NCBI GenBank assembly: GCA_034780895.1
Contig: JAUZTB010000127.1
Location: forward strand, 41,312,503 to 41,376,502
Origin: Rhynchobatus australiae
Lineage: Eukaryota
Reading direction: 5' to 3'
Length of the DNA stretch: 64,000 nt
Shown here: positions 4,340 through 48,310 of the stretch, in pieces
Layout of the letters: every line of letters starts with the position of its first letter
Position numbering within the stretch: the first letter of the stretch is position 1
Made by a program: the position numbers and the translations under genes
Notes under the pieces: generated by a model
The model's database searches: none
What the model was told of the DNA's origin: nothing
The model's input: the letters and a program-made list of their open reading frames with translations, nothing else

Positions 4340-4810
4340 GATTCATTCTTCCACCTCTACCCTTCTCCCAACACCATGCCCTTGCAACTGCAGGTGAGGT
4401 GCAACACCTATCTTTTACCTCTCTCTCTTCCTCCATCCAAGGACCAAAATACTCATACCAGATGAAGCAGTGCTTCACATATTTCTTTCAATTTAGTGTA
4501 CTACATTCTGCACTTGTAATGTGGTCTCCTCTTCACTGGAGAAATCAAACATAAATCACTTTGCAGAACAATTCCATTCAGTCCACAAGGGCTCCTCTGA
4601 GTTTCCAGTCAGCTGTCACTTTCATCCTCAATCCCATGCTGACATCTGTCTTTGGCCTCTTACACTGTTCCAATGAAGCCCAACACAAGCTTAAGAAACA
4701 GGATCTTCAATGAAGCATGTTACAGCCTTCATGATATCATATTCAAGAATTTCAGATACCTAGCCTGGCCAGTTCTGATGAAAGGTCATCAACCTGCATG
4801 GTTGACTCTG

Positions 4811-4848
<38 letters not shown>

Positions 4849-4895
4849 GTTCTCTGACACTGAGTATTTCTGGCACATTCTTTTTATTTCGGATG
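4340..4895 (+). mobile_element. Penelope-like element remnant (GIY-YIG region plus hammerhead-bearing terminus)
   Basis: QMKQCFTY..FNLV.(Y)..CGLL.TGEIK..HFAE matches the GIY-YIG segment at 16387; followed by CTGATGAAAGGTCATCAACCTGCATG (degenerate hammerhead, 4775) and the shared terminal repeat. Confidence 0.7.
4814..4846. repeat. (CT)n microsatellite
   Basis: About 16 CT units, seen directly. Confidence 0.95.
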
Positions 4896-5044
4896 TATAG
4901 AGCAACTACAATTTTTNNNTGTAACAAGGCATGGGTGATAAGTGGCTAGTAACATTCACGCCACAAAGGGGCCAGGCAATGAACAGCTCCAACAAAAGAG
5001 AGACTATCCATCTCCTCTTGACTTTCAATGGTATTACCTTGCCA

Positions 5045-5119
5045 AGTCTGCCACCATCAATTTCATGGGTAGGGATTTGCCAGTCTGCCACCATCAATTT
5101 CATGGGTAGGGATTTGCCA
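5045..5119. repeat. 37-bp perfect tandem duplication
   Basis: AGTCTGCCACCATCAATTTCATGGGTAGGGATTTGCC occurs twice in tandem (5045 and 5082). Confidence 0.9.
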
Positions 5120-8100
5120 CTGAATAGAAACATAACTTGATATCACATACAAGAACAGGTCAGAGGCTGTGTAACCTCCACTGAGTGCCTCAACTCCTGC
5201 CATTGCAAAGCCTTTTCATAATCTCCATGTCACAAATCAGAGCAACAATACCCTCCACCTACCTGGATGAGTACAGTTCCACAACATTCAGGAAGTTCTA
5301 ACAACATGTAGGACTATCCACCATTCAAAGCATTCACTCCTTCCACACCAGTGTGCTGTAGACCAGCTACAAAATTTACTGCAGGTACTAGTCCAGGCTA
5401 CTTTGACAGCAACTCCACCATCAAGAAAGACAAGGGAAAAAGATGCACAAGAACACCAGTACCTGCAGGTTTCCCTCAAACTTGAACACCTTCCCGACCT
5501 GGAGATATGTCATCAGTTAATCATCATTTCTGTGGTCCATGCCCTTAGGCTCCTGTATCTTCTACCCGACGGGAGGGGGGAGAAGAGGGAATGTCCCGAG
5601 TGGGGCAGGCATGGTAGTGTAGTGGTTTAGATTCTCATCATTTTCAATATGTTCATCTTTTTTTGCGTGCTGTCCGTCAGTTTGTGGGGTTTGGGTCTAA
5701 ATTCTGGAACTCCCTCCCCAGTAGCTGTGTGGGAGTAACTTCACCAGAAGGACTGCAGCAGTTCCAGAAGGCAGCTCACCCCCAGCATTCTGAGGGTAAT
5801 TAGGGATGGGCAATAAATGCTGACCTTGCCAGCAACAATCACATCCTGATAAAATGATAAAGAAATAAATCACTTGCTGAAAGTTATGCAAGAACTAGTA
5901 AGAACTTGCTGAACTTTTGCCCTTGTGGTACCTGGTGCTGTGGACAGTAATTGATCAGCAGAACAGTGATTCCAAATTATCAGGACAGTTATTCCAGATG
6001 GACCCTAGACAATATTTCCAGCTGATCATCAAAGCACTAATCAGCAGCACAGGAATTCCAGTTTCCTGTGGGCATGTATTTGGCATCAATACTAGAATAG
6101 AGATCTGGAATGCAAATAACTCTTCAGGTTTGATCCTGGATTCTTCACTCTGTATGCATAGAGACCATAATGAACATTCCCCTAATAATTCTGATTCTAA
6201 AAAGAGATTCTGTGCNNNNNNNNNNNNNNNNNNNNNNNNNNNNNNNNNNNNNNNNNNNNNNNNNNNNNNNNNNNNNNNNNNNNNNNNNNNNNNNNNNNNN
6301 NNNNNNNNNNNNNNNGATTCTGTGCAACAATAATAATGAAACACAATAATAAAAATCAATAAAAATCAAATGATCTAACCTGAATTTTAATATGTAAAAG
6401 TCTACACTCAAAAAAAACTTTTGAAGTTAGAACTCCTGTATCATTGCCCACACTTCATTACAGATAAGGCACCAAGATGGAACCAAAGTACAACAATAAT
6501 GTTCTGCCGGAGATAAATGTGGTTCGATTTGCAAATTGTATACAATACTACATTTGTTAAAAGAGCTAATGACAGCACATTGATGCTGCACTTCCTTTTT
6601 AATTTATAATGACAGGTTATCCAATTTGGATCACTTCACTTACTTCTATTATGTGTAATTAGAATGTCAAAAAAGTACTGGACTTACATGGCTGGAACTA
6701 ACTCTGTTATTAACTGTAATCAAAATTGCCCATATCCCTGCAGCTCCACAATAATTAGATTTTTGCCTCCAAGGAACAGGGTCAACTTTTAACATATCTA
6801 TTCAAGTCCATTATGAATTTTTGGGTTTAGCCTGCAAGAGATCCTGGTGCACAGTACTTAATTAAACCATTTTGCCTCCTGAAATCTCAGAGGCTAAATA
6901 AAAAGTGCAGTGTAATCTATACAATATCTGGAAGGCTGCAGCTTCAGAGCCTTTGATGGACTGAGTTAACAAGCCTTAGCTGTGGCAACTGTCCAGAAAC
7001 CACAGGACTTTCCTTTGTCACATCCAATAGAATGGATAATAACATTTTCTGTTGGCACAGTTTGAACAACAAATCTGCTTCCTTGGAAAAGATATTAAAT
7101 TGCATTTTAAATACCCAGTAGATTTGAAGACAATAGCTTTGAGTCACAAGAAATATGACATTGGTTTGAGGATCTGTAAGAAGAGCAGAAAGGTGTGCAG
7201 CCACATTCTGTGCAGGGAGGCAGAGTGAGCTCAGCTGTATCAACAGCAGCTCAGAAGGGTTTGGTTCTTCAGGTGCCACACTACTCTTAGTAGACTTTTT
7301 ACCCACACCAAAAAATGGAAATGATGTAGGCCATTAAAATGCTTGAGGGATCTGCCATTCAGTTAGATCAAGACTGATCTGTGACATAACTCCATCTAAC
7401 CATCTTAGACAAGCTTCCATAAATGGAAGTCTTGAAGTCTGTCATGGTGACATCCAGAAGCGTATTAGAGGTAGGTAAATGACCTACCTCTGATTTTGAT
7501 ATGCCTTTTTGTTCTGGTCTCCCAATTAATAAACAATCAGAAATAGTTTCACCATGTCGACCCAACCAACTCTTTAAATCATTTTAAACAACATTAAAAC
7601 TAGATTCAATCACTCCATCATCTTCTAAGTGAAGGGGTTAAAGTCATCAAAAGTTAACCCTTCTGATCTCAGAACCTTCTCACCTCAAGATGTCAATCTT
7701 GGTAATGGATGAATTGCCTGATTGCCTTCAATTTATGAGCTTGATCGGTAGCTATTGAGGGGTTAAGAAGAAACGTAATGTGGATTTTGGTCAAAGCCTC
7801 TAAGATGGCAATGAAAGGCAAACTTCGAAGCCACTAATGGAGCAAATTAAATAATGATCAGATATGAGATCATTCCAAAATGCAAGAAAGACAATTTGGC
7901 TACATTAGAATGTTAGATAAATATTCACATAACATAGAACTTTTCAGGTTTAGTGGTTAACCAATAAAGAAGTGATTAAAAAGTTAAACAAGATAGGCTT
8001 ATTAACACTGCAGGAAGTCGAAGAATTATGTAGTAATGTGCTGCTGAGTAAAAGCAAATCATAAGCTGTAAAATTCCTGCAATTTTCTCTTCAATATTTA

Positions 8101-11100
8101 CTTTTTTAGTCATGGTACATATATATGCTGGTATTTTCTTCCATGTAATCATCTAATCTAATTCTACAATACTACTTGATCCACATAATTTTTAATATTC
8201 TTTTTATAAGTCATTAAAAAAGCACAGATTCTGCTTCAATGTTTTTGGCAGTGAAATGCTACAATCAAACCATCTGCTATGCAAAAACATTCCTGAAAGC
8301 TCCACTTGGAAGTCTTTTTGTGATTATCTTCAATCTATGCATTCTTGTTGCCATCTCATTGAAAATGACAACCCAGCAAAATCATAAAGACTTCTGTCAG
8401 ATTAACCCTTAACCTTCTCAGTTTCAGCAGAACAAAAACCCCTATTCCCTATCCATCTCTTCATTAGTGCAACCCTTCATCCTTGCTAACAACCTCATCC
8501 AAACTTTTCCATAAGAAACCTAATCCTGAATATAACAAGCAGTGAAGGGGATCCTTTTAGATATCCAACCTGTTATCCCAAAGCAATTCTCATTGCACTT
8601 TGCCATTTTAGATTCATTGACCAATTTTACATTACAATAATTTCTTTCCAAAGTACATATTCTCTTCTATATACTAAGAATGGCCTACTCAACACAGATA
8701 TCTGTGGAATATTACTATACATTAGTAAACTATAATTCTGAACTTTGATTTACTGTACTTTCAATACGTAACCTATAAACAGAAGGCAGATCAGGAACAG
8801 AAATAGGCCATTCAGTCCCATTTGTTTGCTGCATTATTTGAATGATCATGGCTAATCCACGCGTGAACACTACAGTCTGGAGGTTGAATCTNNNNNNNNN
8901 NNNNNNNNNNNNNNNNNNNNNNNNNNNNNNNNNNNNNNNNNCACTCAGTGTGATGGAATTAAATTAATGTGCTGTAATAATATATGTTATATATTAAAAT
9001 AATACTATTTATGCCAATGTAATATGCATGCATGTAAAACACACTTTACATTAGCAACCTGTCAACTACACTAACAGATCATTCATGGATGGTTTATTCC
9101 AGAGTGTGCCCCACTGGAGTAAGGGAAGGAATGGAGCCCAGAATGAAAGTGGGTAGCATGTAATTACCATTCTCTGACAATCAAATGCACCTCTGGAAAC
9201 GAATCACAAACAATCATAAATTATTTGTATTAAGGCATACTTAGTCACAGAGCAAAGGATCACAGGAACCGCATGAAGCCAAAGGGTAGGATAATCACCA
9301 GCAACTCAACTGGGAACTGCCAACTCAACAATGACCTCATAGACAGGACAGAAGAGAATATTAAGAACACTGGAGCATAGGTGCCACAAAAGAGAGTAAT
9401 AGTCCTTCTTGCTGGCTGACTTTCTTTCTCTAACCAACCTATTATTTGAAATTTATGGTATACCGGTTGCAACTTTGCTCATATAATGCTGACTGAAAAG
9501 CAAAAGTAATTGATTAAATGTCTCATGGATGTGAATGTGCTGCATAAACCAAAGGCCCAAAAATTATTACGTAGAGGGATGGGGAATACGTGATGTCCTG
9601 CTGCAAAGTTCTGTTGCTTATAGATGGAGCTATGCACTCATTTCAGTGGCTTCAAATCCATCTGGGCAATTTCACTTCCAGCCTACCTGAAGCAGACCTC
9701 ATATTCATAGCAAAGACCAGCCACTGCAGAAGTGGGTCATGTCACTTGTAGGCCATAGATGAACAACAGAATTTGCAGATGTGGCATTAAACAACATTTT
9801 ATGTCACTGGACATTTCTGCATGTAACCAGGCCCAGCACATCAAGTGCAAGGGGAGCTGTGCAGTAAATACTCGATCACCTTTCTTCTAAAATACTATAA
9901 TGTGGCACACTTAAACACTGTGCTATGCAATAGAATTTCCAGGCTAACTTCTTTCTAATTCCCACTGAAACCCAAGTAACATGTAAACAACTGGCAAGGT
10001 TTCCCAATACCAGCTAATAAAAAAACATCAAATGTTCTTAACTTCAAAATTATGCCTTTGCCTCCTGTTAGGGGGAGCTTCAGAATGCAAAGTGTGGGCA
10101 AGTCTGGAATCTTTCATCCATTATTTTGAGATGATTTGGCAACATTGTAGAAGAGGAGGAGTGAAAGGAGTCTCAAATTAAAGCAACATTCCCCTCAGGT
10201 GATTTTCTTCCTCAACAACAGAATTTTTCTTTTCACAAGGAGCCTGGTGGAGTGCCATTAATTTTAGGCTGAATGCTGCTGGGGGGATAATACACAACTA
10301 ATATATTTTACTGGTCTTTAATGGGCAGAGTTGCGCCTTGCCAATCTTTAATGGTACTTCTGAAGACACACAGTAACTTTGAAATTTATATCACCTGGAC
10401 AATTCCAGTATTACAAGGCTTGCACCTCCCTTTACAACACCACAGATGCTAATAAGTGATTCCAGATGTTTCATAAATAAGCTTGAGGAGAACAGATGAC
10501 AAGCCTTGACATGCAGAAGCAATGGCTGCAAAACTGATAAGAGTCTTGAGCAATTTTTTGAAAGTGGGGGTAGAGAGCTTTTGGGAGGGATTCTCAAAAT
10601 TTAATATTGAAAAGACTAAAGTTTCTGCCACTGGCGGTTGGACAAAAAGTGGCCGCATGTTATTTAAAAGTCCACAGTTAGAAGAATAAAATGTTTGCAA
10701 TAGCAGATTGGGATACAGAGGATTGAATGGGGCAAAGTCAGGGTGAGATTTTATAGATCCAAAAAAAACTTGCATTTCGATAGCACCTTTCAGGCCATCC
10801 GAGAGTGTTATACTGTCAATGAAGTACAACAACAATTACACAGAAAATTAAATGTGGGATATGAAGTAGCCATTTTATGCAAAGCAAAACACATCAAACA
10901 TCAATGTGATAATAATCAAGTAATTTTTAAAAATCTTGTATAATAAGGACAATTATTTTGAAATTAATGTATTGGGGACAAGGAGTCAATGCANNNNNNN
11001 NNNNNNNNNNNNNNNNNNNNNNNNNNNNNNNNNNNNNNNNNNNNNNNNNNNNNATTATGTACCAGAAGGCACCTGTAATATGTGCCGGATGGGAGATCTG

Positions 11101-11149
11101 CAAAGATTTAGAGGATTCAAGTATTAAGGTGACAAATACTTCATCATTC

Positions 11150-11370: not shown

Positions 11371-12319
11371 TTAGCTATGATTGGGTCGATGTATGATTGC
11401 AAGTGGCTTTGATATTAAGAATCAAGTCACACATATAGCTGAGTAGCCAGTTGTCTCTGCTGCCACCAACCTAATGACTTTCACAACAGATCCGAGCAGT
11501 AACAATTTACAGGTGTACTCCTGCCTTCTTGACATTTTTGCCAGGGAAATGGAATCAAATGAACAAAATGTAACTTTGGTCTTGTTAATCACCATCTGCA
11601 TTCTTGGAATACCAGATGGTGTGCATCCTGTTGGATCCCATATCCACTGTTCAAATATCACAGCCTCTGAGAAATGCCACTGACTGGGACAACTCCTTGG
11701 TCAAGGCCAGTGAGCCAACAATTCATGTGGAAAAGACTATGGCTGGAAATAAATTCAGAAATCCACTGGCCAGGTACATCTCGAACAAGTGTGGGGAGGG
11801 AGGAGGCGGGGAGAGGAGGGGATAGTCAAAGACAGTCCTCAGCTAGAGTGGGTTCCTTCACATTCAAAAGGAAGTAAAGATGATTAAAATTGAAGGAGCT
11901 TCCTTCAGCTATGGGGATATGTAGAGCTTACAGTGTTTATTATGGTCAACCTTGGCTGGTATTTATCCAAAAGGGATGCTATGTAACGAGTGTATATTGA
12001 AACTGATTTTGTTCCTGGATGCTCAGGCATCTCATTTTCTCTAGGAACATCTTGTGCTAAGCCATGGAGTGGCAAACTTCCAGATTTACCATCCATGTGC
12101 TTTAATGTTAGTTCAGTTTTCAGCTGTTCTTAGATGGGGGGGGGGGGGGGGGGGTCCGGGCACGNNNNNNNNNNNNNNNNNNNNNNNNNNNNNNNNNNNN
12201 NNNNNNNNNNNNNNNNNNNNNNNNNNNNNNNNNNNNNNNNNNNNNNNNNNNNNNNNNNNNNNNNGGTAAGGGAAAGGAAGGAAAAGGATGGCCAACTTGT
12301 CATCTGGGTTGAAAATCAA

Positions 12320-12480
12320 AGTAAGTGCAGATGTTGGAAATCTAAGATAAAAGTAGAAAATGATGGAAAGATACTAGATTAGGCTGCACCTGTAGTCTTC
12401 AACCTTAACTGTTAACTCTGTTTCTCTTACCACAGATGCAGCCTGACATGTTGGCGATTTCCAGCATTTTCTCTTTTTAT
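12320..12480. mobile_element. Degenerate inverted (fold-back) copy of the Penelope-derived short repeat
   Basis: TGCAGATGTTGGAAATCTAAGATAAAAGTAGAAAATG... on the left and ...CCACAGATGCAGCCTGACATGTTGGCGATTTCCAGCATTTTCT on the right are opposite orientations of the same terminus. Confidence 0.6.
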
Positions 12481-12886: not shown

Positions 12887-13350
12887 CAGTGGCACGCAAA
12901 ACTTTGGACATCCCTGTCAAAATTTCTGTTACTGTGAATAGCTAAGCGAGTAAAAGATGACCTGATTTCCAAAAGCCATAAAGTTAAAGATGACATATTT
13001 CTTTAATACTTTAAGCAAGATTACTTTTTTATTTCCATCTTTTACAGTTTCAAAATAACAGAAAAGGAAAAGGGCCCAAGCAAAAGTTTGGGCACCCTAC
13101 ATGGTCAGTACTTAGTAACACCCCCTTTGGCAAGTATCACAGCTTGTAAATGCTTTCTGTAGCCAGCTAAGAGTCTNNNNNNNNNNNNNNNNNNNNNNNN
13201 NNNNNNNNNNNNNNNNNNNNNNNNNNNNNNNNNNNNNNNNNNNNNNNNNNNNNNNNNNNNNNNNNNNNNNNNNNNNCATCTTTTACTCGCTTAGCTATTC
13301 ACAGTAACAGAAATTTTGACCAGGGGTGCCCAAACTTTTGCATGCCACTG
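12887..13350. mobile_element. Tc1/mariner transposon of IR/DR type (interior in an assembly gap)
   Basis: Starts CAGTGGCACGCAAAACTTTGG and ends CCAAACTTTTGCATGCCACTG followed by TA. About 70 bp of near-perfect inverted repeat is visible on both sides. Inner direct repeat CAAAAGTTTGGGCACCCT at 13081-13098; 100-N gap at 13177-13276. Confidence 0.9.
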
Positions 13351-16259: not shown

Positions 16260-16690
16260 CCACTCTTTCATCCTCACCTACCACTACTGGTCTTAGGGCA
16301 TTTTTCCATGCAACAGCAGGAGGTGCAACACCTGAGCTTTCACCTCTTGACTTCCTACCATCCAGGGACCCAAGCAGTCTTTCCAGGTGAAGCAAAGATT
16401 TGTATGCACTCCTTCCAATCTAGTGTACTGCATTCAATGTTCACAGTGTGGACTCCTCTGCACTCGGAAAACCAAACACAGATTGGGTGATCACTTTGCA
16501 AAGCACCCGTGGTCAGTCTGCAGGTGTAACCAAGAGCTTCCAGTTGCCTGCCACTTTTGTTCAGCGTCTACTCCCACTCTGATCTCTCTCTCTGAGTATA
16601 TCCTCCTGCACTGTTACAATGACACCGAATGCAAGTTTGAGGAACATCTCACCTTTCACATGGGCATATTGCAGCCTACAGGACTCCATA
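16260..16690 (+). mobile_element. Penelope-like element GIY-YIG endonuclease remnant
   Basis: ORF 16387: KQRFVCTPSNLVYCIQCSQCGLLCTRKTKHRLGDHFAKH...LPVACHF...HMGILQPTGLHIE fits the PLE GIY-YIG pattern N(L/V)VY.I.C..C...Y.GET.R.L..RF.EH ... P.G(L/M)N. Confidence 0.85.
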
Positions 16691-16691
16691 T

Positions 16692-16865
16692 TGAGCAACA
16701 CACAAAAAGTGCAAGAGCAACTCAGCAGGTCAGGCAGCACCTATGGGGGGAAATGAACAGTCGATGTTTCAGGCCAAGACCCTTCATCAGCACTGGAAAG
16801 AAAGAGGGCAGAAGCCAGAATAAAAGGAGGTGGGGGAGGAACATGAGCAGGCAGGTGACAGATGA
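16692..16865 (-). mobile_element. Penelope-derived terminal repeat, inverted relative to the adjacent GIY-YIG fragment
   Basis: CACACAAAAAGTGC..AGCAACTCAGCAGGTCAGGCAGCACCTATGG...GTTTCAGGCCAAGACCCTTCATCAG. A partial inverted copy (GATTCATCTATCACCTGCCAGCTTGTG) lies at ~16943-16975. Confidence 0.8.
16758..16795 (-). ncRNA. Minimal type-I hammerhead ribozyme motif
   Basis: Reverse strand: CAGUG CUGAUGA AGGGUCUUGGCCU GAAA CAUC GACUG. Intact core boxes, stem II, short stem III, AUC triplet, and stem I CAGU/ACUG with one mismatch next to the core. Confidence 0.7.
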
Positions 16866-17405: not shown

Positions 17406-18329
17406 TGACAGTTACTTATTTCAGCTGTAATAGCTTCTGTCTGAGATCCTGTAGCCAAGTCAAATATATGTCTCCACCTGGATACAGAACACATTAACAA
17501 CAAAGTAATGAAGTGCTGGAAAGTCTCTTGGAGTGACCAATAAATATATACCATTTGAAACGAGCAAAATTACAAATTGCTAACTGAGTTAGGATTGCTC
17601 ATGTAGTCTTAAGGCAGAAAAGGTTGAGAACAAAATATTACGAGCATCTCTAAAACACTGTGCTTGGAAGGAATATCAAAACTGCATTACATCAGGGGCA
17701 ATAAGGTTCTGTTAGGATGCGTTCTTGCAAGTTGTAGATCTTGTATTTAATATCATCATAAATATAAATTACAGCAATGACTCTTAATTAAAGAGCCATG
17801 CAAGCAAGAAAAGTTTTATTTAGCTCCTATGATAACCAAGTCCTTCCCAAATCATTTGATCTATGGAGTTCCTTCCATTATTTTTTCCTTCTTTTAAATT
17901 TCAGGGTCTGAATCTCTTTTTGAACCCTACTTAAGCACATTTCAGGATTCAGCTCATCTTTTCAGAGTGTGTTGTTCAATGAGCCTTACACAAAACTGTT
18001 CTTTGCAAATGCAATGCATCACTTATTTTAGCATTATACCATATTGCACTTCACGTGCTTCATGGCAAAATAAAAGCCATCCAGCTTCTCCTCTGACACG
18101 CTGCATGATAAGATGGCAAACATGCAGAGAGCCAGACACCAATGTCAGAACTCTGAAACAATGCTACAGGTATGTGCATGGGATACAGACTGCAAAGAAA
18201 AATACACTGCACTTTTCAGAACTTCAAAACATCCCACAAGCTTTTTACAATGAATGTGAAGTAATCACTGTTGTAATGTCACAGCAAATTAATTGGAAAT
18301 CAGGAAACTGCAGCTGTTCGAAATCTTAG

Positions 18330-18490
18330 ACAAACTGAAAATGCTGGAAGCACTCAGCAGGTCAGACAGCATCTGTGAAAAGACAAACAGAAAAAGGTCT
18401 GAAGAAGGATCTTGTACCTGAAACATTAACTCCTTCTCTTTCCACAGATGCTGTCTGATCTGCTGACTGTTTCCTGCATTTTCTGATTTT
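18330..18490. mobile_element. Fold-back Penelope-derived short element with central hammerhead motif, inserted in a Deu-SINE-like remnant
   Basis: About 50-bp imperfect inverted arms (GAAAATGCTGGAAGCACTCAGCAGGTCAGACAGCATCTGTG / CACAGATGCTGTCTGATCTGCTGACTGTTTCCTGCATTTTC) around CTGAAGAAGGATCTTGTACCTGAAACATT (18399-18427). Confidence 0.75.
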
Positions 18491-21400
18491 GAGCCAATTT
18501 ACTGGATTCACCCTAAACATGTCAGGTCTGTGAGAATCAAACAGGTAAAACCAGCAGCCAATTTATTACAGCAGTGCTCCCCACACACCAACATGATAAT
18601 GACCCTGAAATTACTTCTTAGTGATATATAATAAAATGGTACCGAAAATAATGATTAGCATGTTATACAGTTAAAGCAAAGCAGTTAATGGCATATTAAA
18701 GAACTATGCAACACATTTACATTGTCTAGACATCACACTTAATGAATAACAATACATTCAATTGACCCACGGTGCTGAATAATTAAACTGGCATTAATCG
18801 CCTCTGTGCTTAATGGTGTACAGATTGCAAAAATTATATTTTACCATAATAATCATCCTTGTATGCCTAAAATGATTTCAGAAAATGATTTTAACTGTCC
18901 AAAATTGTCCAGTTTATGTATTAAAGATGAGTATCACCTCAGGATAGACACTCAGCAAACAAACAAATTACATTTGCAATGCTTCATACATGCTTAAATT
19001 TCTTGGACCCGGGGGTTATGAAAATGCTGTTTTCAGTCCATTCACTCTAAACACTAGGTTTTCCAAAGAGTTAGATCTGTGAGAACCCAATGAATAAACT
19101 AGGAAAGTAGCAAATGTGAATACTAAATATAAGTGGGGAGTTGGAGCCATGCCAGGCAGCATGGAGCTACCATGTCTCAACCTTTAATGTAAAATTTCCC
19201 AAGATGCTTCACATGAGTGTAATCGGACCAAAAAGGGGGATGTTAGGATAAGAGACCAAAAGTTCCATTGAAAAGTTAGAATTTAAGCAGCAGCTCGGAG
19301 GGTTGTGAAGTTGAATTTTATCAGAACAACGCTCCAGAAGTTTAAAGGAACACCCTGAAATCAATGGGAGGAAGGAAAGTCAACAGACATCCTGAATCCT
19401 GGAGAACAGAATATAAGAGAGCAATTCAGGAGAAATAGGAATCACAAGCAGGAGGATGGGAAAGTTTGGGAAAGCTTGAAATTGAGTTGAGCCCTTGCTT
19501 ACTTGGCTCATGCCTGATGTTGCAAAGTATCTCTGTATTTATTAAGACCTCTGGCAAACAGCCCCGTTATACTTCAAGGTTACATTGTCAAACATCTTGT
19601 CAGATGCATTGCTACTAATAGCACTACTGTAACTAAATTCAGCCTTCATTTCTAAATCTAAATCTAGCCTATTTAGAATGCTTCTGTACTCCTTATAATC
19701 AATATCACAGCATTAATTCTGTATCAAAGAAGAAAAAACAGAGAATTTTCAGAACAAAATGTTCATTAATCTCTAACTATCCACTTCTACAATTTCAGAA
19801 AGAATGCTGCCTGTATTATAGGGATGTGTTATANNNNNNNNNNNNNNNNNNNNNNNNNNNNNNNNNNNNNNNNNNNNNNNNNNNNNNNNNNNNNNNTACA
19901 ACAATGAAAAAAAAATCATTGGACAACTTAAATTGGCAGAAGAGCTGCGACTCATTCAATGTGGTAAAGAGCAAGCCTTGAACTTGTGGCTATTAATATT
20001 TGATATGCAGAAACATACCTGGAAACATATATAAAATTTAATGACGGAGTTCAAAAAATATTTTAAAATACAGTCGCATGATTCACAAGCAACAGAGATT
20101 CCAAAAAGCAGAATGAAAGGTGATCATAATTTATTTTCAAAGAATATTCCCTGACGAGTGTAAGTAAAACAATGAAAATAATTCTCCTTGTAAAAAATTG
20201 ACACTAAGACTTATTCCTACAGGCCTAAGGATAATGCTCAATCAAGCACTTCACAAACCCCCATCATTTGAAACCTATCGATGTTCCTCCAGAGCAGATC
20301 GATTTGCAGAGATGCAGCTATTCACTTGAATTATTCTGTAATAGCCTGCAATGTTAACCAGTTCGCTGCATTAAGTGGAAGCACAGCTATCTAATCCAAA
20401 GACGTGAGGTCACGATTTGTAAAGAACCTTCGGGAAAATACCTATCTCCAAATTGAAATCCATTCTGAAAAGGCAACTGTGTTGTTCAACTTTGCTATGG
20501 GATCAGTGCAGAAAAACTTTCTAATGCTTTAATCCAGCAGTTCCCTAACTCCAGCACAGAATCTACAAGGGAACGCAAGAATTAACTAATTCAATGCAGG
20601 TTCCATCATAGTAATCAGATCAACGCATTTTCATTACCGCTGTTATGTCCTGACCTCATGAACTCCAAACCCGGCATTAACTCCCACCAATTTAGATTTA
20701 AGATTTAGCTTCACTCTCACTTTTTCCCCACTAGTTATAAAAGACATAAAGGGTAAGAAAGAGTCTTGTTACAAGCTTTGGGGAGCAGGCTGGGATAGAG
20801 GATCAAGTTAAATGTAATTTGGGGGTGCAACAATTTTTAAAGTAGATTCTTTTTTGGCTTCCATCTTGCCTTTTATTTCAGAGGCTCCAAAAGACAAGGT
20901 ATAATAGCTGAAAAGAATTTTAATCAACGACTGCTTGGAAGGATTATGCCCAATGAATGAGTTTCCAGTAAACGACTTGAATGCTATTGTACTAAACCAC
21001 TCATAAAAATTATTGATTTCAATTATTTTGGTGCCTGCAAGATCTAAATGATGAACACTAAAAGCACTAAACCAAATGAAGACTTGACCATAAAGTATCT
21101 TCTACACTTCACACCAATTTATAGCTAGCTAGATCTCTACTTCACACTGGACACAACAAAGTCAGTGACAAAGATCCATAAAGCTTCATGCTACATTCCA
21201 ACAGAAACAAGGAACTAAATGCAAGTCAGCAAGTTCCTTCAGCTAACAAGCCCGATCAATAGAAGATTCAACAAATAGAAATCTCTATTTATGGAGGAGT
21301 ATTGAGAATATGATCCTTTAAATTTTGTATGCAATTTTTACATTGGGTCAGGGATTGGAGCAAGTTTTTGAAGCACACTGAATAATCCTGAGGTACACAT

Positions 21401-21792
21401 CTGTGGAATTGATCTTTCATATTTCCTTACAAACAAATGGCCCTTTTCAAGAACTACCATCCAAGTACATTAATGAGTCTCAAGAGACACAGAATCTTTG
21501 TGGAATTCGCCAAACTGAAATTTCACATATTCCAAGTGATTAGGCTCACATTCAGTAAAAAAAGACAAAAAATTGAAGCATTAGAACATTATTGGTATAT
21601 TAATTACTTAAAGTGTGCTTTTTAACTGCGTTTTCTGGATATACCTGCAGCCATCTGGCTAATTCTTGGTCTATCAGATCTCCAAAGCAAAACTTATCCC
21701 TAATTACACATTTATATTTCAAGACAGAGCAAGTCCCAGGACAATGATACTTGCCAGCACATTAATATCTTAATAAAATATGTCACTAATTT

Positions 21793-21904
21793 GAGAGACA
21801 AGAGATTCTGTAGATGCTGGAATCTGGAGCAATACACACAAAATGTTGGAGGAGCTCAGCAGGTCAGGCAGCATCTACTGAGGGAAATAAACAACTGACG
21901 CTTC
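21793..21904 (-). mobile_element. Penelope-derived terminal repeat running into a gap
   Basis: GAGACAAGAGATTCTGTAGATGCTGGAATCTGGAGCAATACACACAAAATGTTGGAGGAGCTCAGCAGGTCAGGCAGCATC, same family as 47787 and 16692. Confidence 0.8.
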
Positions 21905-24959: not shown

Positions 24960-27900
24960 GACAGCAAAGTTAACTCCATAGCTCCTCACAAACATCTAAG
25001 AAACTGGAAGAGTTGTCTCACAGAATGGTCAAGCAATAGCCTGATATACTGACATTCACAGAATTAGATCTTACAGTTAACGTGCCTGATTTCTCCATCA
25101 CAATCCCTAGATATGCCCCATCCCACTGAGTTAACACAGCAGTCTTGGCACAGGAGGGAGTGGGTCCACAGCATTGGCTCTAGACGCGGGAATTGTCAGG
25201 GCATTAGGTCATACATGGGAAAAGGAAACCTTCTTATGACTAACACCTACATCCTTCCTTGTGAATCAGTGCTCCTCTGCATTGAACATGCAAGGAACAT
25301 TGAAAGTAATAAGGACACAGAATGTATTCCGGGTGGAGACTTCAATGTCTCACAAACAGGCTTGGCAGCACCACTGCTGATCGAGTCCCAAAGGATAAGG
25401 TTGCCAGACTGGTCTTGTGACAGATACTGAGAGAACCAACACAAGGATTCTTATCTTCAATAATCTGGCAGATGCAACTGTCCATTACAAAGTGGAAGAA
25501 GTGATCAGAGCACAGGTCTTATAGAGACAAGTCCTGTCCTCAGACCAACACCCTCTATCATGCTACTGCAATTGTGATTCAGAAAAGATCTGGCAGCTAA
25601 AAGCTGGGCATCCATGAAACACAAAGGACCATCAGCAGCAGCACAAATGTACAGTAACCTCATGGGTCCAGTTTATCCCTTGACTTACCATTACAATCAA
25701 ACCAGGTATCAACATAGCTCAAGGAGGAGTGCAAGAGGACAAGCCAAGAGCAGCACCAGAGCAACAAAATGAGGTAGCGTCCTGGTAAAGTTACAGGAGG
25801 ACTGCAAGTGTGTGACACACTAAAAGAAGCATGTAATAGACAAAGCTAAGAGATTTCATAAGACCATAAGACATAGGAGCAGACTTAGCTGTTCAGCCCA
25901 TCAAGTCTGCTCTGCCATTTGATTTATGGCTGATTTATTTTTCCCTCTCAACCCCATTCTCCTGTCTTCTCCCCATAACCTTTGATGGCCTTACGAATCA
26001 AGACCCTATCAACCTCTCAACCTCTGCTTTAAATATACCCAATGACTTGACCTCTACAGCCGTCTGTGGCAATGAATTCCACACATTCACCACTTTCTGG
26101 TTAAAGAAATTCCTCCTCATCTCTGTTCTAAAGGGACGTCCTTCTATTCTGAAGCTGTACCCTCTGGTCCTAGACTCTCCCACTACCAGAAACATCCTCT
26201 CCACTACCACTCTATTCAGGCTTTTCAATATTCAGTAGGTTTTAATCCTCTAACCCTTCTAAACTCCAGTGAGTACAGGCCCAGAGCCATCAAATGCTCC
26301 TCATATGTTAACCATTTCATTCACAAATAATGGGTCAGATCAAAGCATTGCATTATTGCTATATCTATGGTTATGTTAGNNNNNNNNNNNNNNNNNNNNN
26401 NNNNNNNNNNNNNNNNNNNNNNNNNNNNNNNNNNNNNNNNNNNNNNNNNNNNNNNNNNNNNNNNNNNNNNNNNNNNNNNCCCAGAGCCATCAAATGCTCC
26501 TCATATGTTAACCCTTTCATTCACAAATAATGGGTCAGATCAAAGCATTGCATTCTTGCTATATCTATGGTTATGTTAGGTATAGCATGGTGAACATTCA
26601 AACAAATAATGGAAAAAGGCTGCCTGAGAATAACTTATCTTCAAGGATGTTGGGCCCTGTATTAGAGCACTAAAGACAAGTTTGAAGCACTTGAACCATC
26701 ATCAGCCAGAAATGATAAGTGGATGCTCACCTTAGCTACCTCCTGAGATCCCCACCATTAAACAAGGCAGCTTCAGCTCACTCCTCATGATATTATGAAA
26801 TAGCTTTGAGCACTGGATGAAGTAAAGGATCTGGGACCAGACAATCTCCCGGCTGTAGTACTGAAGGTCTGTGTTCCAGTACTTCTTGTATCTCCAGCCA
26901 AACTGTTCTATTACAATTATAAAAGTGGCACTCATCCAATATTGTGGAAAATTGCCCAGGGATTCATTTTTCACAAAAATCAGGACCAATTTAATTTAGC
27001 TAAGTATTGCCCAAACAGTCAATTCTCAAAGGGATGTTAGGTGCTACTGTCAGTATTACCAAGTGCCACTTACTCAACGATAACTTGCTCACCAATGTCC
27101 AGTTTTAACTTGCTCACTTGGCTCTAGATCTCATCACAGCCTTGGTCCAAATGGCAGTCAATGGACATCAAAGAGCAAACACTGCAATGGTTGAATTTAT
27201 ACCTCACACAGAGGAAGATGATTATGTCGTTGGAGATCAATCATCCCAGACACAGACCATCTGCAGGAGTTCCTCAGACCCTAACCAACCATCTTCAGCT
27301 GCATCAATGACCTTCTGTCCATCAGAAGGTCAGAAGTGGGTCAGCCGGTATGGAAGACCTCGATAACATTCAGGAGTCAGCTAACAAGTAACGTTTGCAT
27401 GACAGAAGTGCCAGAAATATCTACATAATAAATTAAAAGAGGTTATGTTAGGATACAACTCATCAACAAGACAGAGTCTATCCACCTATTTATGATATTT
27501 AATAATACTGCTATCAATGAATTCCTGATCATCACATCCTAGGGTGTTAGCACTTACCAGACACAGAACTGGACTGGCTACATAAATATCATGATTACAA
27601 GATCAGAAACTGGGTAACCTGTGGTGAGTGATTCATCACCTGACAGCCTAAAGCTTTTCCACCACCTACAAAGCACAAGTCAGGAATGTAATAGAATGCT
27701 CTCCACTTGTCTGAAAAAGTGGAGCCAATTCCACTTAAGAAGATTGACACCATCCAGGATAGAAAAAGCCACTGGACTGGCAGCTCATCCACTATCCTAA
27801 AACATCTATTCCAGGGCACAGCTGGCTGTAGTGTATACCATCTATAAAATGCACTGCAATTTCACTAGCTGCATAAATAGCATGGTTACAACTGTAGGTC

Positions 27901-28442
27901 AGAGGTTGAATATCCTGCTGTGTAACTCATCTCCTGACATCCCAAGGACTTTCCACCATCTACAAGGCACAAGTCAGGAGTGCGATGGAATACTCTCCAT
28001 TTGTCTGGATGAGTGCAACTCCCAACACTCTCAAAAAGCTTAGCACTGTCCAGGACAAAGCAGCCCACAAGGTTGGTACTCAATCTGCCATCCAAAACAT
28101 TCAGTTACTTACCTTGGCTACACCAATCAACACCTTCAAAACCCGCCTCCTGTACTACCAAGAAGGACAAAAGCAGCAGCTACATTAGGACACCACCACC
28201 TGCAGGTTCCATTCCAAGTCATGCAGCATCCTGACTTGGAAATATGTCAATAGTCCTTCATCGTCATGGGGAGTCCATATCCTGGGACACCTTGTCCAAT
28301 AGCATCATAGGAGTACCTTCACCAGAAGGAATGCTATGTTTCAAGAAGGCAGCTTGTGAACAACTTTCTTGAGGCCATTGAGGGATGGGCAATAAATATC
28401 GGGCTTGCCATCAACATCCACATCCCAGAATTGAATATAAAA
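24960..28442 (+). mobile_element. CR1-group (CR1/L2-like) LINE remnant, interrupted by a CR1 insertion and carrying an internal duplication
   Basis: Endonuclease-like GGDFNV (~25330); YKAQVR..MEYSPFVWMSATPNTLKKLSTVQDKAA (27961-28065); 3' tail GGGATGGGCAATAAAT...CACATCCCAGAATTGAATATAAAAAAA. Confidence 0.75.
25856..26320 (-). mobile_element. CR1 (HER1-like) LINE 3' fragment, relatively young
   Basis: ORF 25998-26228: ESRTRGYSFRIEGRPFRTEMRRNFFNQKVVNVWNSLPQTAVE..SLGIFKAEVER is the canonical CR1 ORF2 C-terminus; terminal short repeats CATAAGACCATAAGAC. Confidence 0.9.
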
Positions 28443-28449
28443 AAAGATC

Positions 28450-29369: not shown

Positions 29370-30000
29370 CACCACTAGCCACATTTTCTTCACCCCACCA
29401 TCTTCTGCAGGGATCACACCCTCTGTAACTCCCTGGTCCACTCATCCCTACTCACCAACCCCTCCTTGACCCCTGGCACTTTTCCTCTGCGACACTGGTC
29501 CCTACACCTCCTCCCTCACCACTATCCTGAGACCTAAACACCGTTTCAGGTCAGGCAAAGATTCATCTACGATTCCTCCAACCTAGTCTACTGCATTCAG
29601 TGCTCCCGATGTAGCCTCCTCTGCATCGGCGAGTCCAAGCGCAGACTCACAGTTTTGCAGAACATCCACGCTCTGTCACAGTGGCTATCCCAAGCTCCCA
29701 GTTGCATGCCATTTCAATTCTTCTTCCCATTCCCACACCAACCCGTCCATCCTCTGCCTTCTCCAATGCCAGGGTGAGGCCCAATGTAAATAAAGCCCTC
29801 CCCTAACTGGCCAGACCTGTCCGTCATCCTTCACCTCTCCTCAGTCCACCAATCACCTTGGGTGTGTGTCTCACCACTCCGATCTCCTCTTATACTGGTC
29901 ATCTCCCTTCGCTACTCTTAGTCCTGATGCAGGGTTTCGACCTGAAACATCAACAACTCCATTCCCCTCCCAGATGATGTTCAACCCGCTGACTTCATCT
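29370..30000 (+). mobile_element. Penelope-like element remnant (GIY-YIG plus hammerhead terminus)
   Basis: FQVRQRFIYDSSNLVYCIQCSRCSLLCIGESKRRL (29544-29648); downstream AGTCCTGATGCAGGGTTTCGACCTGAAACATC at 29920-29951. Confidence 0.85.
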
Positions 30001-35850: not shown

Positions 35851-35945
35851 GCCCTGATGCAGGTTCTTGATTTGAGACATCGACTACATCTCTGTCTCCA
35901 CAGATGTTGCTTGACCTGCTGAGTTCCTCCAGCAGTTTGTTTTTT
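35851..35945 (+). mobile_element. Penelope-derived terminal repeat with degenerate hammerhead, inserted in an old CR1 3' remnant (~35800-36155)
   Basis: CCTGATGCAGGTTCTTGATTTGAGACATCGAC...CCACAGATGTTGCTTGACCTGCTGAGTTCCTCCAGCAG; the flanks (CAGAGTGGTTAGAA / TGAAACTTGGTACCACAAGG) are CR1-like. Confidence 0.65.
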
Positions 35946-38486: not shown

Positions 38487-38605
38487 TCAAGAACTGTGGA
38501 TGCTGGAAGTCTGAAATAAAAACAGAAAATGCAAGAAGCATTCAGCAAGTCAGGCAGCATCTGTAGAAAGAGATAGTTAATGTTTCAGGTTGAAGACTCT
38601 TTAAA
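38487..38605 (-). mobile_element. Penelope-derived terminal repeat
   Basis: ACTGTGGATGCTGGAAGTCTGAAATAAAAACAGAAAATGC...CAGGCAGCATCTGTAGA...GTTAATGTTTCAGGTTGAAGAC; the reverse strand retains CCTGAAACATTAAC (hammerhead 3' half). Confidence 0.7.
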
Positions 38606-40179: not shown

Positions 40180-41350
40180 CCAAATCACTAATGCAGACTG
40201 AAGAGCCAGGCCTCAACCTCCCAATTTATTCCCACTTTTTTTTAAATTACATCCATCAACAGTAGCACATTATCCCCAATCGTATGTACTCTAGATTAAC
40301 TTCAGTAACTTCTTGAGTGCACCTAATTGAAAAGCCTACCAAAAATCCAAATATACCACATTTACTGGTTCCCCTTCATCCATTCTGCTCATTACATCCT
40401 CAAAGAACTCAAACACTATTCCCTTTCATTAAATCACCTTGACTCTGTATTATGACTTTCTAAATGTCCTGTAATCACTTGCTCAATACTGCATTTTCCC
40501 AATGACAGGCTCCCCTACATTTTACTGCTCTCCCATGCACTCATCCACCACCTTCTTAAAAAACGCTGCTATATTTGCAGTTTTACAATGCTGTGACATC
40601 ACAACCAACGTAACTTTGTAGGTTGTAATTAATACATCCACTATTGTTGCAGACACTTTTAAAACATTAGGATTCAGGCAATCAAGTCCAGGGGACTTGT
40701 TAGCCATTAGACCCATTTGTTTGGTTAGAACCTTTTCTCTACTGATAATTCTTCAGAGTTCCTCCTCTCCTGCTTCCTCTGATTTTCTATTACTAGAATG
40801 CATTTCACATCTTCTAAGTTGATGGACACAAAATTTGAATTCTCTGCCATTTCCTTATTTCCCATTATTAATTCCTCACTCAACCTCTCGCCCTCAACTT
40901 CTTATTCTCTTTTCTTTAAATATTCACGTAGAAGCTTCTTTATATATATATTTTTTGCTAGTTTACTTTCATAATCTATTTTAACTTTCTTCAGTTTATC
41001 TGAATCACCCTTTGCTGGTTTTGAAAAACTTCCTAACCATCTGGTACACTATTAAATCTTCACAACATTGTATGCCTTTACTTTTAATTTGACACTGCAC
41101 TTAATTTCCTTTGTTAGTTACGGATGAATCACATTTCCCTTAACAGTATTTCCCAATGAAATATTTACTTATATGGCTTCCAATTCATCAGCTTTTAATC
41201 CACTGTTCCAGTCCACTTTAGACCTTTGCAATGATCTATATTTAAGTTTAAAGCACTAGTTTCTCACCCTCAAAGTGAATGTGAAATTCTACCAGGTTAT
41301 GAGCACTCTTCCCGAGAAGACCATTCTCTGTAACTAATTCACATGACCAG
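40180..41350 (-). mobile_element. Degraded CR1 LINE ORF2 (central part)
   Basis: ORF 40522-40716 MGLMANKSPGLDCLNPNVLK...KTANIAAFFKK matches CR1 KSPGPD..HPRVLKE...W..ANV.P.FKKG; VDVVYLDF-like TAAATGTGGTATATTTGGATTTT on the reverse strand near 40345-40365. Confidence 0.8.
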
Positions 41351-42532
41351 ATCTAAAATGGTGAATTCCATGGTTAATTCTGTAACATATTTTTCTAGGA
41401 AACTGCCGCAAATACAATACTAGCTCACCTTCGAGGTTGACTAGGCCAGGAACATTTATTTTAAATATAATACTCTGCCTTTCCAATGCAATGTATAAAC
41501 AATATTTAAACTCAATTAACATTTTTTGAAAAGGGGTTGCCCATTGACAGAAATGAAGAACAAATTACATGCATTTTTATATTGCAGATTTTGTGCAGTC
41601 AAAGCATTTGATATTTTATTTCAAGTACTATGAATTTTGTTTTCCATTCTTCAGATATTTGAAAGGAAATATTAATGCAAGTGCTTTTTAATAAATAATT
41701 AACAGAATATAATAAAGTGATCGAAAATATTTCCCCTCAGTCCAAGGATGTAACATCCAAAAGCAAAACTAGTTAGAAACTGTGATTAGTAAACATGGAA
41801 TTATATTTTATGACAATACACCATCACAGTGACAAGTCTGATGAAAAGAATTTATAACGCAAAAATTTGACATAAATAATGTGTCAACAACTTGACAACA
41901 GGATGTATATAGACCGAAGATTTTAATGTTATAAAAGCACCTGCATGCAATTCCAATTTGCACAAACTGATATTCTGTCACAATTTATTTTACACTACTG
42001 GTGTCATTTCCTCAAATGAAAATTTTTATGTCTGGTTTACAGTGAAAACAACGCATCTAAGCATGTCAATTTGTGAAATCTTGTCACTGGGTTCCAAACA
42101 ATGGTTGCTCCAAACAAACTTTTTCCTGAGTAACTGAAATTTCTAAATGTCCACATTTACAATTTAAACCAAATTGAACACTATGTTTCTAAAAGTCTAA
42201 ATTGATTTATCCATTCAGTGGTCACAGCCTTAAGATTGTTTCACACAAAGTCCTCTTATGGTGTCCCAATTGTGAAGCTGTTCATGTGAAATTGGGGCAG
42301 AGACATGACACTTTGACAGACATTTACACTTCTGTGAGCAAATTTGGATGCAGATAAAACTTTACTATTCTAAGCAAAATAGAGATTATGGAATTCTACC
42401 CCTATCTATTACCTCTGGATTAAATTGTGACAGGGACTGATTTTAGATATATTTCTAACATGCATCTAATCTCTGCTCACTCCATTTTGTTAGATCCCCC
42501 TTCGCCTACCATTTATTTAACTGATATGATTG

Positions 42533-42826: not shown

Positions 42827-43354
42827 AATAGAGAGAAGAGAAGTGGGGTGGAGCACCTCAGATGGGGAGTGGGAGTATGGATGAAGATGTGGGAAGGTGA
42901 GAGGGAGGACGACATAGAGGATTGAAGGGAGATTGGTACAGGAGGGAGGGGGCTGGCATGCAGGGGAAAGGGACAATAGCAAATGGGAGGGAGGTCAGCA
43001 TGACGTGGGAGAGGGAAGACAGAGTAGGGGGAGGGAAAGGAGGACTGTGAGGTGTGGTCAGTGGAGGAATCAATCAAGAAAATTATTGTGTAGAAGTTCA
43101 CATGTAGAATACGTCAGGAAGATACTTGGATGGAAGTGAGAGCATTATAGAATGATGGATCAAGAAACCAGTTGAGGTTGGGTGTCAGGGGACGATAGGG
43201 TCATAGGAAGACAGGTGGAGAGGTTGGGGATCTTTCAAAGAAATGGGACATCAGTTGGTAGGTAGAAGCATTCACACATAGACAAAATCTGCAAGACCCA
43301 GTGGTCTTACTGCATCTGACCTTCATTCAAATTAAGTGCCTGAAATAAAAAGAA

Positions 43355-43845
43355 GTGGCTATGGAGAGGATGCAGAAGAGGTTTACCAGGATGCTGCCTG
43401 GATTGGAGGGCAAGTACTACAAGGAGAGGTTGGACAAACTGGTGGACAAACTGGTGTTGCTTTCTCTAGAGTGGTGGAGGTTGAGGGGAGACCTGACATA
43501 AGTTTATAAAATTATGAGAGGTATAGAGTAGACAGTCAGAATCTTTTTCTCCAGGTTGAAATATCCAATACTGGAGGGCATGCATTTAAGGAGAGAGGGA
43601 AAAGTTCAAAGGACAAGTTTTTACACAGAGTGCTGGGTGCCTGGAATACACTGCCAGGGGTGGTGGTGGAGGCAGATTTGATAGAGACTTTTAAGAGGCT
43701 CTTAGGTAGGCACATGAATATGCAAAGAATGGAGGGATATGGACCATGCGCAGGCATAAGGGATTGGGTGTCATTAGTTCAATTAGTTCAGTACAACATC
43801 ATAGGCCGAAGGGCCTGTTCCTTAGCTGGACTGTTCTATGTTCTA
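43355..43845 (+). mobile_element. CR1 (HER1-like) LINE 3' fragment
   Basis: MERMQKRFTRMLPGLEG..YKERLDKL ... FTQ..LGAWNTLPGVVVEADLIETFKRLLGRHM; terminal CTGTTCTATGTTCTA. Confidence 0.9.
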
Positions 43846-46800: not shown

Positions 46801-47748
46801 GAGGAAATTGAATCATGTTATTGTGAAATATGCACTTTTTTTTAACCACGTGTTGTCTTTTTTTCTTGCACTATTGCCACCATTTTCTGCTTTGAATCAT
46901 CAATAAATCATTCCTGCCTCTCAACCTGTCACAACATTATTCAATTAATTTTGTCCTGGCTCAGTAACAGCCGAAAAAGTTAAACCTTTTGGCTGTGACT
47001 CAAGTTGTAGAATGGGGCTTGAATGCACAACATTCCTCTGATTCAGAGTAAGAGTTTTATTAAGTGAGCCAATTTGCTTTTGAAGACTGAAATAATAATT
47101 GAAATAATTTGATGCTGTGCACCCATTTACCTGAGCTGAATCCAAACTCAGGTCTTAGAAATGTGAAAGAAAAATGTGTCAATTCACTGCATTAACCACA
47201 GATTCAAAGATTCTACCTGACTACTCTTCTTCATATTCCCATGCCTTTCAAGTTAATTATGTCAATATGTTTCATTATATGGATTAATATTGGTAGAATC
47301 TGAATACACACTTCAAATAAAATTGTTCATCATTCTAAAGCAGACTGCCTGAAGAGTGAGGGAGATAATACCATGTCTTACTGAACAGAACCCTATAACT
47401 ACCACGATCAGATTACATTAATAATGCATTTAGTCATAAAATCCCTTATTAAAAAAGCATTTTAGTAGCACTGCTGATCAGGTAGGCTTGCTTGCTATCC
47501 CAGACTAGCATCCCTGCCAAATTTATTAGCTGCTCTCTTTATTTAACCTGTTTCTTAGAGCTCTCCTTGCTTCAGGAAAGTCCAGCCATAGCAATAGCTT
47601 AGTAACACAGGCTTCAAGAACCATATCTTTATGTTGCAGTACAGAAACAGAACCTAACAATAACCATTAAATTTGAGAAAGGCAATCACACTACAGCCAT
47701 TTGATGCTTCTCAAAATGGATTTAATCACAATCTCGAGTGATATTAAG

Positions 47749-47785
47749 GGTTCTGATGAAGGGTCCCAGACCTGAAATGTTAACT
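47749..47785 (+). ncRNA. Minimal type-I hammerhead ribozyme motif
   Basis: GGUU CUGAUGA AGGGUC-CCA-GACCU GAAA UGUU AACU: intact core, 4-5 bp stem II, stem I GGUU/AACU, GUU triplet. Confidence 0.7.
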
Positions 47786-47786
47786 G

Positions 47787-47966
47787 GAGACACAAGAGAT
47801 TCTGCAGATGTTGAAATAAATCTGGAGTAACACACATAAAAAGTGCCAGAGGAACTCAGCAGGTCAGGCAGCATCTATGGAGAGAAATAAACGTCGACGT
47901 TTCAGGGCGAGACCTTGAAATGCCTGACCTGCTGAGTTCCTCCAAAACTTTTTGTGTGTGTTGCTT
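47787..47966. mobile_element. Fold-back Penelope-derived element nested in a sibling copy (47749-48045), 15-bp target site duplication
   Basis: CTGAAATGTTAACTG at 47772-47786 and 47967-47981 flanks an insert with inverted arms GAGGAACTCAGCAGGTCAGGCA / TGCCTGACCTGCTGAGTTCCTC. Confidence 0.85.
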
Positions 47967-48224
47967 CTGAAATGTTAACTGTGACCTGACCAGCTGAGTG
48001 CTTCCAGCATTCTCTGTTATTTGTTTAAGATTTCCAGCAGTATTTTCATTTACTGTTGAATTCACTGCAACTTCTCTTCCAGGAATGCCAAGTTGGAAAT
48101 GTTCGTCTCTGTTCTCTGGTAGGACTTCCACCTGTTCCTCTTGCCTTGTTCACTCTCAGTGGTTTCTCTCACCCATCAAGTTTTCAAATGAGGTGCTGAC
48201 AAAAACTCCCTTCCATTGACGTGG

Positions 48225-48310
48225 CTATAATGAAAGGTCCCGGACTCAAAAGGTTAACTTTCATGGATGCTGATTGACCTGCTGAGTGTTTCTAGTATTT
48301 TGTGTTTTGT
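48225..48310 (+). mobile_element. Degenerate Penelope-derived terminal repeat
   Basis: ATGAAAGGTCCCGGACTCAAAAGGTTAAC...GATGCTGATTGACCTGCTGAGTGTTTCTAGTATTTTGTGT. Confidence 0.55.

Follow-up and report, generated by a model that had tools for sequence, protein, structure and literature searches.

Minimal type-I hammerhead ribozymes in the terminal repeats (pLTRs) of metazoan Penelope-like elements (PLEs) have been known from the literature since 2014 (Cervera & De la Peña, PMC4209133), and the parts of that paper considered here describe motifs with a CUGANGA box, an extra nucleotide before stem II, a G10.1-C11.1 pair, a 4-5-bp stem I and a palindromic 15.2-16.2 stem without loop 3, occurring mostly as single dispersed motifs from truncated PLEs, with opposite-strand pairs and several families per genome. 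Cleavage by PLE hammerheads is described as low and dependent on dimers or protein (literature including the summary in PMC6765202). For the Poseidon PLE of Anolis carolinensis (Frangieh et al. 2024, PMC11167929, in part), the template is uncut RNA, the hammerhead needs protein and its mutants still insert, an optional tail arises from two internal start points of the reverse transcriptase (RT), and no RNA sequencing reads end at the cut site. Neptune PLEs (Craig et al. 2021, PMC8557442, in part) encode an RT, then a CX2-5CxxC linker and, at the C terminus, a GIY-YIG endonuclease (EN) with a CCHH motif. Retrozymes (Cervera & de la Peña 2020, PMC7229834; Li et al. 2026, bioRxiv 10.64898/2026.07.22.740005; both in part) form tandem arrays of 150-450-bp units with a complete hammerhead each, and were found by Li et al. 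in their single sampled chondrichthyan. Here we analyzed a family of hammerhead-bearing repeats in a 64,000-nt stretch of Rhynchobatus australiae (the window; GCA_034780895.1, contig JAUZTB010000127.1, positions 41,312,503 to 41,376,502), which shares the listed features of the 2014 motifs in a shark/ray host, a host group that does not appear in those parts of PMC4209133.

The window loci are very probably pLTR fragments of a very abundant PLE with RT and GIY-YIG domains that carries this known minimal hammerhead, in nearly all copies mutated and likely inert. Using an nhmmer profile built from 68 genomic copies, we found 14 segments of the repeat at about 10 loci in the window and none in the controls (the reversed window and 40 reversed control regions). 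All eleven positions listed by an earlier sequence-only reading carry pieces of this one repeat, and its identification as a Penelope minimal type-I hammerhead with a palindromic ACGU stem III was borne out. The segments and adjoining EN remnants are given below, with C3 denoting the C that opens the CUGANGA box.

4432-4707, plus strand: GIY-YIG EN remnant, frameshifted (weak tblastn match, E 2e-4 to 9e-3, and translation)
4764-4890, plus strand: pLTR end of old subfamily C with a short 3' untranslated region (UTR); C3 at 4775; GAAA box destroyed, (TC)16 inside
12317-12480, no single strand: degenerate fold-back of the 3' part of subfamily C, without CUGANGA box
16351-16695, plus strand: GIY-YIG EN remnant (CxxC...H...H), 29% identity to the EN of the RT + EN protein P0010
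16687-16870, minus strand: subfamily A pLTR, inverted relative to the EN remnant; C3 at 16790; both boxes present, stem III ACAU, G.G at stem I pair 1
18299-18492, no single strand: subfamily C fold-back, an inverted 3' arm (18299-18383) and a sense copy beginning at the hammerhead (C3 18399); both boxes present, stem III ACAU, stems weak
21783-21904, minus strand: subfamily A 3' end with tail, its 5' part behind an assembly gap from 21905
29544-29808, plus strand: GIY-YIG EN remnant, frameshifted
29830-29998, plus strand: subfamily D pLTR; C3 at 29924, core CUGAUGC (C at 9), stem III ACAU; TATA-like TTATA upstream and CAG-like start
35851-35945, plus strand: subfamily D2 short copy beginning at the hammerhead; C3 35854, core CUGAUGC, GAAA box broken (GAGA)
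38487-38601, minus strand: subfamily C 3' end with tail, CUGANGA box lost
47749-47786, plus strand: hammerhead, the best-preserved of the window, ended by the next insertion; C3 47753; both boxes, 4-bp stem I, 5-bp stem II, stem III AUGU in place of ACGU
47779-47962, no single strand: subfamily A fold-back, a minus-strand copy (47916-47779) and a sense arm (47921-47962)
47968-48039, plus strand: subfamily C 3' fragment
48225-48310, plus strand: subfamily C copy, both boxes broken

The three GIY-YIG remnants reported beside copies do adjoin them (16351-16695, where the copy is inverted, 29544-29808 and, weakly, 4432-4707 at E 2e-4), and the fold-backs at 12317-12480, 18299-18492 and 47779-47962 are real. 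The CUGANGA and GAAA boxes attributed to the best copies occur together in 3 of the 14 segments (C3 at 16790 minus, 18399 plus and 47753 plus) and not in the others; stem III in those three reads ACAU, ACAU and AUGU, and no window copy combines both boxes with ACGU. The copy quoted as the best (16758-16795) has the two boxes, but its first stem I pair is a G.G mismatch, the core at 29924 and 35854 is CUGAUGC rather than CUGAUGA, and the CUGANGA box is missing at 47890 and broken or lost at 4775, 12320, 38487 and 48225. The ancestral ACGU placed near 47890-47900 is present there on the minus strand (GAAACGTCGAC); GAAACGUC is intact at 47890-47900, but the fold-back copy that holds it is truncated in stem II. 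An Rfam scan returned no hammerhead family at E<=5 in the window, and we rejected its matches to psbJ and MIR1507 as fold-back hairpins.

The extreme abundance proposed from the window was confirmed in a genomic sample from the gap-rich 2.23-Gb assembly, drawn as 120 stretches of 10 kb each from round-number coordinates along large scaffolds. This sample (1,011,382 non-N bases) contained 216 segments, or 0.21 per kb, which extrapolates to ~400,000 segments, ~340,000 loci and ~185,000 hammerhead-spanning copies genome-wide; the last number stands against 4,000-9,000 descriptor hits reported, by different methods, for coelacanth and Xenopus in PMC4209133. Coding parts were far scarcer in a first look, with 34,705 genome-wide candidates for the EN (queried with the remnant at 16351-16695), 20,108 for the RT core and 4,172 for the N-terminal part of the RT. 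An EN lies directly upstream in 18 of the 216 sampled segments. Among the 30 best EN loci listed, ~260-330 nt of pyrimidine-rich sequence usually separates the endonuclease stop from the hammerhead repeat behind it; genomic loci, including broken RT-then-EN copies (L028, L032 and L056), have RT sequence upstream of the EN. One branch of subfamily C has only ~45-70 nt between endonuclease end and hammerhead and a stem II of its own (AGGUC-AUC-AACC), as in the window at 4700-4790 and at L121:4054, L323:3892 and L303:1435.

RT homologues at 53-65% identity were named from rays and sharks, and two homologues (P0010 and P0022) join RVT_1 and GIY-YIG in a single protein, to whose EN the window remnant aligns. 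The linker before the EN reads C-HR-C-NT-C (C-x2-C-x2-C) and CxxC...H...H lies inside the EN; because these match the CX2-5CxxC linker and CCHH of the definition in PMC8557442, the predicted protein fits a Neptune-type PLE, a placement made by motif alone, and Nematis also has a linker finger according to the same source. Features typical of PLEs are seen among the copies (variable 5' ends, inverted 5' copies and an optional ~35-nt tail), much as Neptune elements show heavy 5' truncation, inverted 5' copies, a 30-40-bp tail and target-site duplications that are often not discernible (PMC8557442, in part). Pfam gave nothing above cut-off for the window EN remnants or the genomic RT pieces, a PDB sequence search with the RT gave 0 matches and a search for longer homologues gave 1 weak match. 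In L024 the RT and EN of one copy (2-793 and 873-1496) lie on opposite strands, a 5' inversion within the open reading frame (ORF). Three ray/skate protein models named as host-gene isoforms, P0002 (divergent protein kinase domain 1C), P0004 (chitinase domain protein 1) and P0012 (nicotinamide riboside kinase 1), are made up mostly of RT/EN sequence from this element and represent either exonisation or an annotation artefact.

Clustering on the sequence downstream of the ribozyme separated subfamilies A, B, C, D and D2, with A2 split off by its upstream sequence; C is the oldest (~20% diverged) and accounts for 98 of 216 sampled segments. The consensus check suggested by the sequence-only reading came out in its favor for A, B and C, whose consensuses carry the canonical boxes CUGANGA and GAAA-NN-UH, while A2 (CAGAUGA) and D/D2 (CUGAUGC) deviate. 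All subfamilies have the extra A between 9 and 10.1. At the 10.1-11.1 pair, A, A2, B, D and D2 have G-C or the G-U that CpG decay makes of it, and C has A-U or G-U; the palindromic 15.2-16.2 stem without loop 3 is ACGU in young copies and one of the decay products CA, TG or TA in old ones; and stem I has just 3 bp in B, D and D2. Stem II pairing had been said to persist while its loops vary, but the CCU of the quoted GGG/CCU is mostly CpG decay of CCCG, and most apparent covariation likewise reflects CpG decay. One clean two-sided compensatory change between subfamilies stands, pair 2.1-1.1, which is U-A in C and C-G elsewhere; pair 10.1-11.1 is partially compensated (A-U in 20 of 51 subfamily C copies), and the changes U-A/U-G and C-G/U-G are one-sided. 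Single-strand folding z-scores were -1.6 to +0.9 for hammerhead copies and 0.2 for the entire 141 nt, and the best self-duplex predicted for an intact copy is an extended helix that looks inactive, with the ACGU duplex alone at -3.1 kcal/mol.

Unlike the motifs in the considered parts of PMC4209133, two subfamilies here have A at position 4 or C at position 9. The D/D2 core CUGAUGC-A has 470 exact genome matches and C at 9 occurs in 27 of 100 sampled copies that span the hammerhead; a non-U at position 4, as in A2, occurs in 721 matches (82 A, 14 C and 4 G among the first 100 listed), and A at 4 in 11 of the 100 sampled copies. Together 37 of 100 have one of these two letters, mostly in two large subfamilies, both of which have an EN upstream in a few loci. 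The C of the D/D2 core could be a bulge, with the next A acting as A9. The substitutions U4A and A9C are expected to impair hammerhead cleavage. A literature search on cleavage by these two variants found nothing relevant, though studies of hammerhead core variants may contain them. Beside the ribozyme, a ~32-nt block downstream (consensus +49 to +120 from C3; window 47849-47880) is the most conserved part across subfamilies, draws most RNA reads and is able to pair with the tail; it may be a protein-binding or RT-priming structure.

Most copies are decayed. CUGANGA with GAAACGUH is kept in 3 of the 100 hammerhead-spanning copies and both boxes with any stem III in 20, and exact canonical patterns number 2,825 genome-wide against 0 in the control. 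CpG positions, G12 and the stem III C-G among them, are changed in 41% of cases. Copies thus decay essentially neutrally, and judging by their letters nearly all are likely unable to cut.

Regarding the form of the copies, their 3' ends fall at two points, just before or at the end of the ~35-nt tail (among 30 subfamily A copies assessed by eye, about 20 had the tail, 9 lacked it and 1 was hidden), resembling the optional tail of Anolis Poseidon. The sequence-only reading had taken the repeat for a separate non-autonomous retrozyme-like family, a ~130-nt unit that would be transcribed, self-cleaved, circularised and moved by a Penelope partner. The short form it saw is indeed common, with a preferred 5' edge (33 of 89 copies, detailed below) and fixed 3' ends; target duplications of 12-16 nt surround a -5 to +128 unit in three copies, 198 of the 216 segments have no EN within 600 nt upstream, and metazoan non-LTR retrozymes are similarly short, non-coding and pLTR-related with a type-I hammerhead. 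Unlike retrozymes, copies here are dispersed, mostly broken and continuous with the pLTR, EN and RT of a PLE. We found no head-to-tail array in the window and no tandem array among the 216 segments, although some might be concealed by short-read gaps; 44 of the 216 have a neighbour on the same strand within 500 nt, at irregular spacing. The units start upstream of the cut site rather than at it, a long upstream pLTR occurs in every subfamily, fold-back junctions vary from copy to copy, and the putative promoter is missing from short copies. We therefore rejected retrozyme identity, there being no head-to-tail units with a complete hammerhead and no independence from the coding element, and regard a separate mobile unit as highly unlikely; the repeat is the element's own pLTR, and the ~130-nt start-to-tail form is most readily understood as a by-product of the RNA that the element makes.

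For 5' ends, we used 98 sampled segments of subfamilies A, A2, B, D and D2, of which 9 were dropped for gaps to leave 89; subfamily C (98) and 20 others were excluded. Starts within -10 to +4 of C3 were seen in 33 of the 89, or 33 of the 61 at risk, which is four to five times as many as the background of 0.10-0.14 per 15 nt predicts (p~1e-13); a control of subfamily B copies from ORF-selected loci gave 1 of 30. There was no peak at the cut site, as 2 of 89 start in +25 to +29 and neither is clean at the cut (+28). The lack of a cut-site peak, with the pile-up at the 5' edge of the hammerhead, indicates that the templates were likely uncut RNAs starting at the ribozyme. In otherwise C/T-rich surroundings, all subfamily consensuses that include upstream sequence (6 of 6) have an AT-rich box starting at -32 to -29 relative to the A of CAGU, and 29-32 nt is the typical TATA-to-initiator spacing. 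Fold-backs are frequent, with 67 of 216 segments in head-to-head pairs. Their junctions often use 4-nt inverted repeats near the core, TCAG/CTGA or CCTG/CAGG (the latter made by the C at 9), as in L253, L255, L273, L276, L277 and the window at 18299-18492; such repeats are plausibly a signature of snap-back priming.

The same pile-up in the same element could instead mark a 3' splice site or an RT stop at the folded hammerhead, an account we consider doubtful. It would fit the pyrimidine tract and CAG present in all subfamilies, the D. virilis precedent of an intron ending at helix I, and the 16 of 30 fold-back arms that start in the same window using micro-hairpins such as TCAG/CTGA or CCTG/CAGG. 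Against it, short copies share no upstream exon, their flanks being unrelated (loose-end consensus agreement 0.35-0.5), the AG is retained in many of them, and an RT halted by a hairpin would presumably stop as it enters, at the 3' side, where no peak occurs.

RNA evidence came from three raw runs of one study, on a related organism not shown to be this species and with library type not recorded. At 82% likeness, reads on a subfamily B copy numbered 12,043 of 11.1 M, 16,020, and 32,828 of 12.9 M, in both orientations, so that about 0.1-0.25% of reads touch the repeat. Fold-back joints in these reads begin near the hammerhead 5' edge. No pile-up of read starts or ends was seen at the cut or the presumed start in the three runs, a weak test with standard RNA sequencing, and the lack of read ends at the cut matches Anolis Poseidon; no recurrent back-joint at the cut site appeared among the joints listed (15 of 51; 2 on a second copy), in libraries ill-suited to short circles. 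These data also bear on the suggestion that intronic copies cut or fold host pre-mRNAs at scale. The ~340,000 loci, the share of reads touching the repeat and the some thousands of copies with a full motif (the 2,825 exact matches) speak for it, whereas the motif is not intact in 97 of 100 copies and requires a dimer or protein, reads run through the cut site in either orientation, coverage of a subfamily A copy stays level there, and reads in the element sense show no depletion (56-62%, assuming usual library stranding). We consider action on host RNA extremely improbable and any effect weak; the concern is corrected by the broken state of almost all copies.

Returning to transcription from the pLTR, the pile-up of copy starts likely marks the beginning of the element RNA. 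This start would lie at the A of the conserved CAGU, 4 nt ahead of C3, or close to it, driven by a TATA + initiator promoter in the pLTR, so that the hammerhead would form the first ~36 nt. With uncut RNA as template, as the Anolis PLE does in vitro, the RT would prime at the tail; priming at the leader copy of the tail would yield the ~130-nt promoterless stub, cDNA reaching the RNA 5' end would often snap back on short inverted repeats to give a fold-back, and longer copies would be ordinary 5'-truncated cDNAs. A canonical hammerhead in master elements would need dimerisation or the help of a protein to cut after GUC/GUU, and cutting would not be required for insertion. Going further, we tentatively propose, with rather less than even confidence, that the elasmobranch Neptune hammerhead is the first structure of a TATA/initiator transcript and is now catalytically dispensable, its retained fold serving as a 5'-leader or dimerisation signal for the element protein, and that stubs and fold-backs are a fossil map of the RNA 5' end. 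Dispensable catalysis is suggested because two independent core-variant subfamilies (U4 to A; C in place of or before A9), with stem II and the ACGU palindrome retained, made over a third of copies. Neither a 5'-end pile-up nor a promoter is described in the considered parts of the Anolis Poseidon paper, where the hammerhead contains the ORF start; in subfamily B here it holds no AUG, and the linker motif makes the clade Neptune-type. Literature searches on elasmobranch PLE hammerheads or a TATA start site found nothing relevant, some supplements and one hammerhead-variant study aside.

Several points weigh against this account of the element. The start site is placed from copy ends alone, starts scatter over ~15 nt rather than marking a single base, and the RNA reads do not pile up there. 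The pyrimidine tract with CAG also suits a 3' splice site, and D. virilis Penelope, in the partial account considered, has a TATA-less promoter and an intron whose end coincides with the 5' edge of helix I. The 5'-end count does not cover subfamily C (98 of 216 segments), whose short-UTR branch has no -30 box. Target-site duplications of at least 10 nt bracket 6 of 44 short non-fold-back copies compared with 2 of 44 in the control, and no intact ORF or intact full-length element was found in the genome. Finally, non-CpG core positions are changed slightly less than the downstream block (6.9% vs 9.9%, p 1e-4), a difference that the homogeneous subfamily B does not show (3.7% vs 3.3%) and that ascertainment bias could affect. 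This genome offers a natural experiment on what PLE hammerheads do, in which hundreds of thousands of copy ends indicate uncut templates beginning at the ribozyme, and the natural core variants (A4 and C9) of successful subfamilies can be compared with canonical copies.

Elsewhere in the window, no host gene was identified. Near-identical duplications flank 100-N gaps at 26280-26579 and 12916-13320, as well as in L167/L168 and L180/L181, and are likely short-read assembly artefacts that mimic tandem or inverted copies. Another dispersed repeat family has at least 3 copies of 60-80% identity (5424-5814, 27629-28354 and 55027-55528), and broken reading frames at 40600-41800 on the minus strand resemble, by eye, a LINE reverse-transcriptase region.

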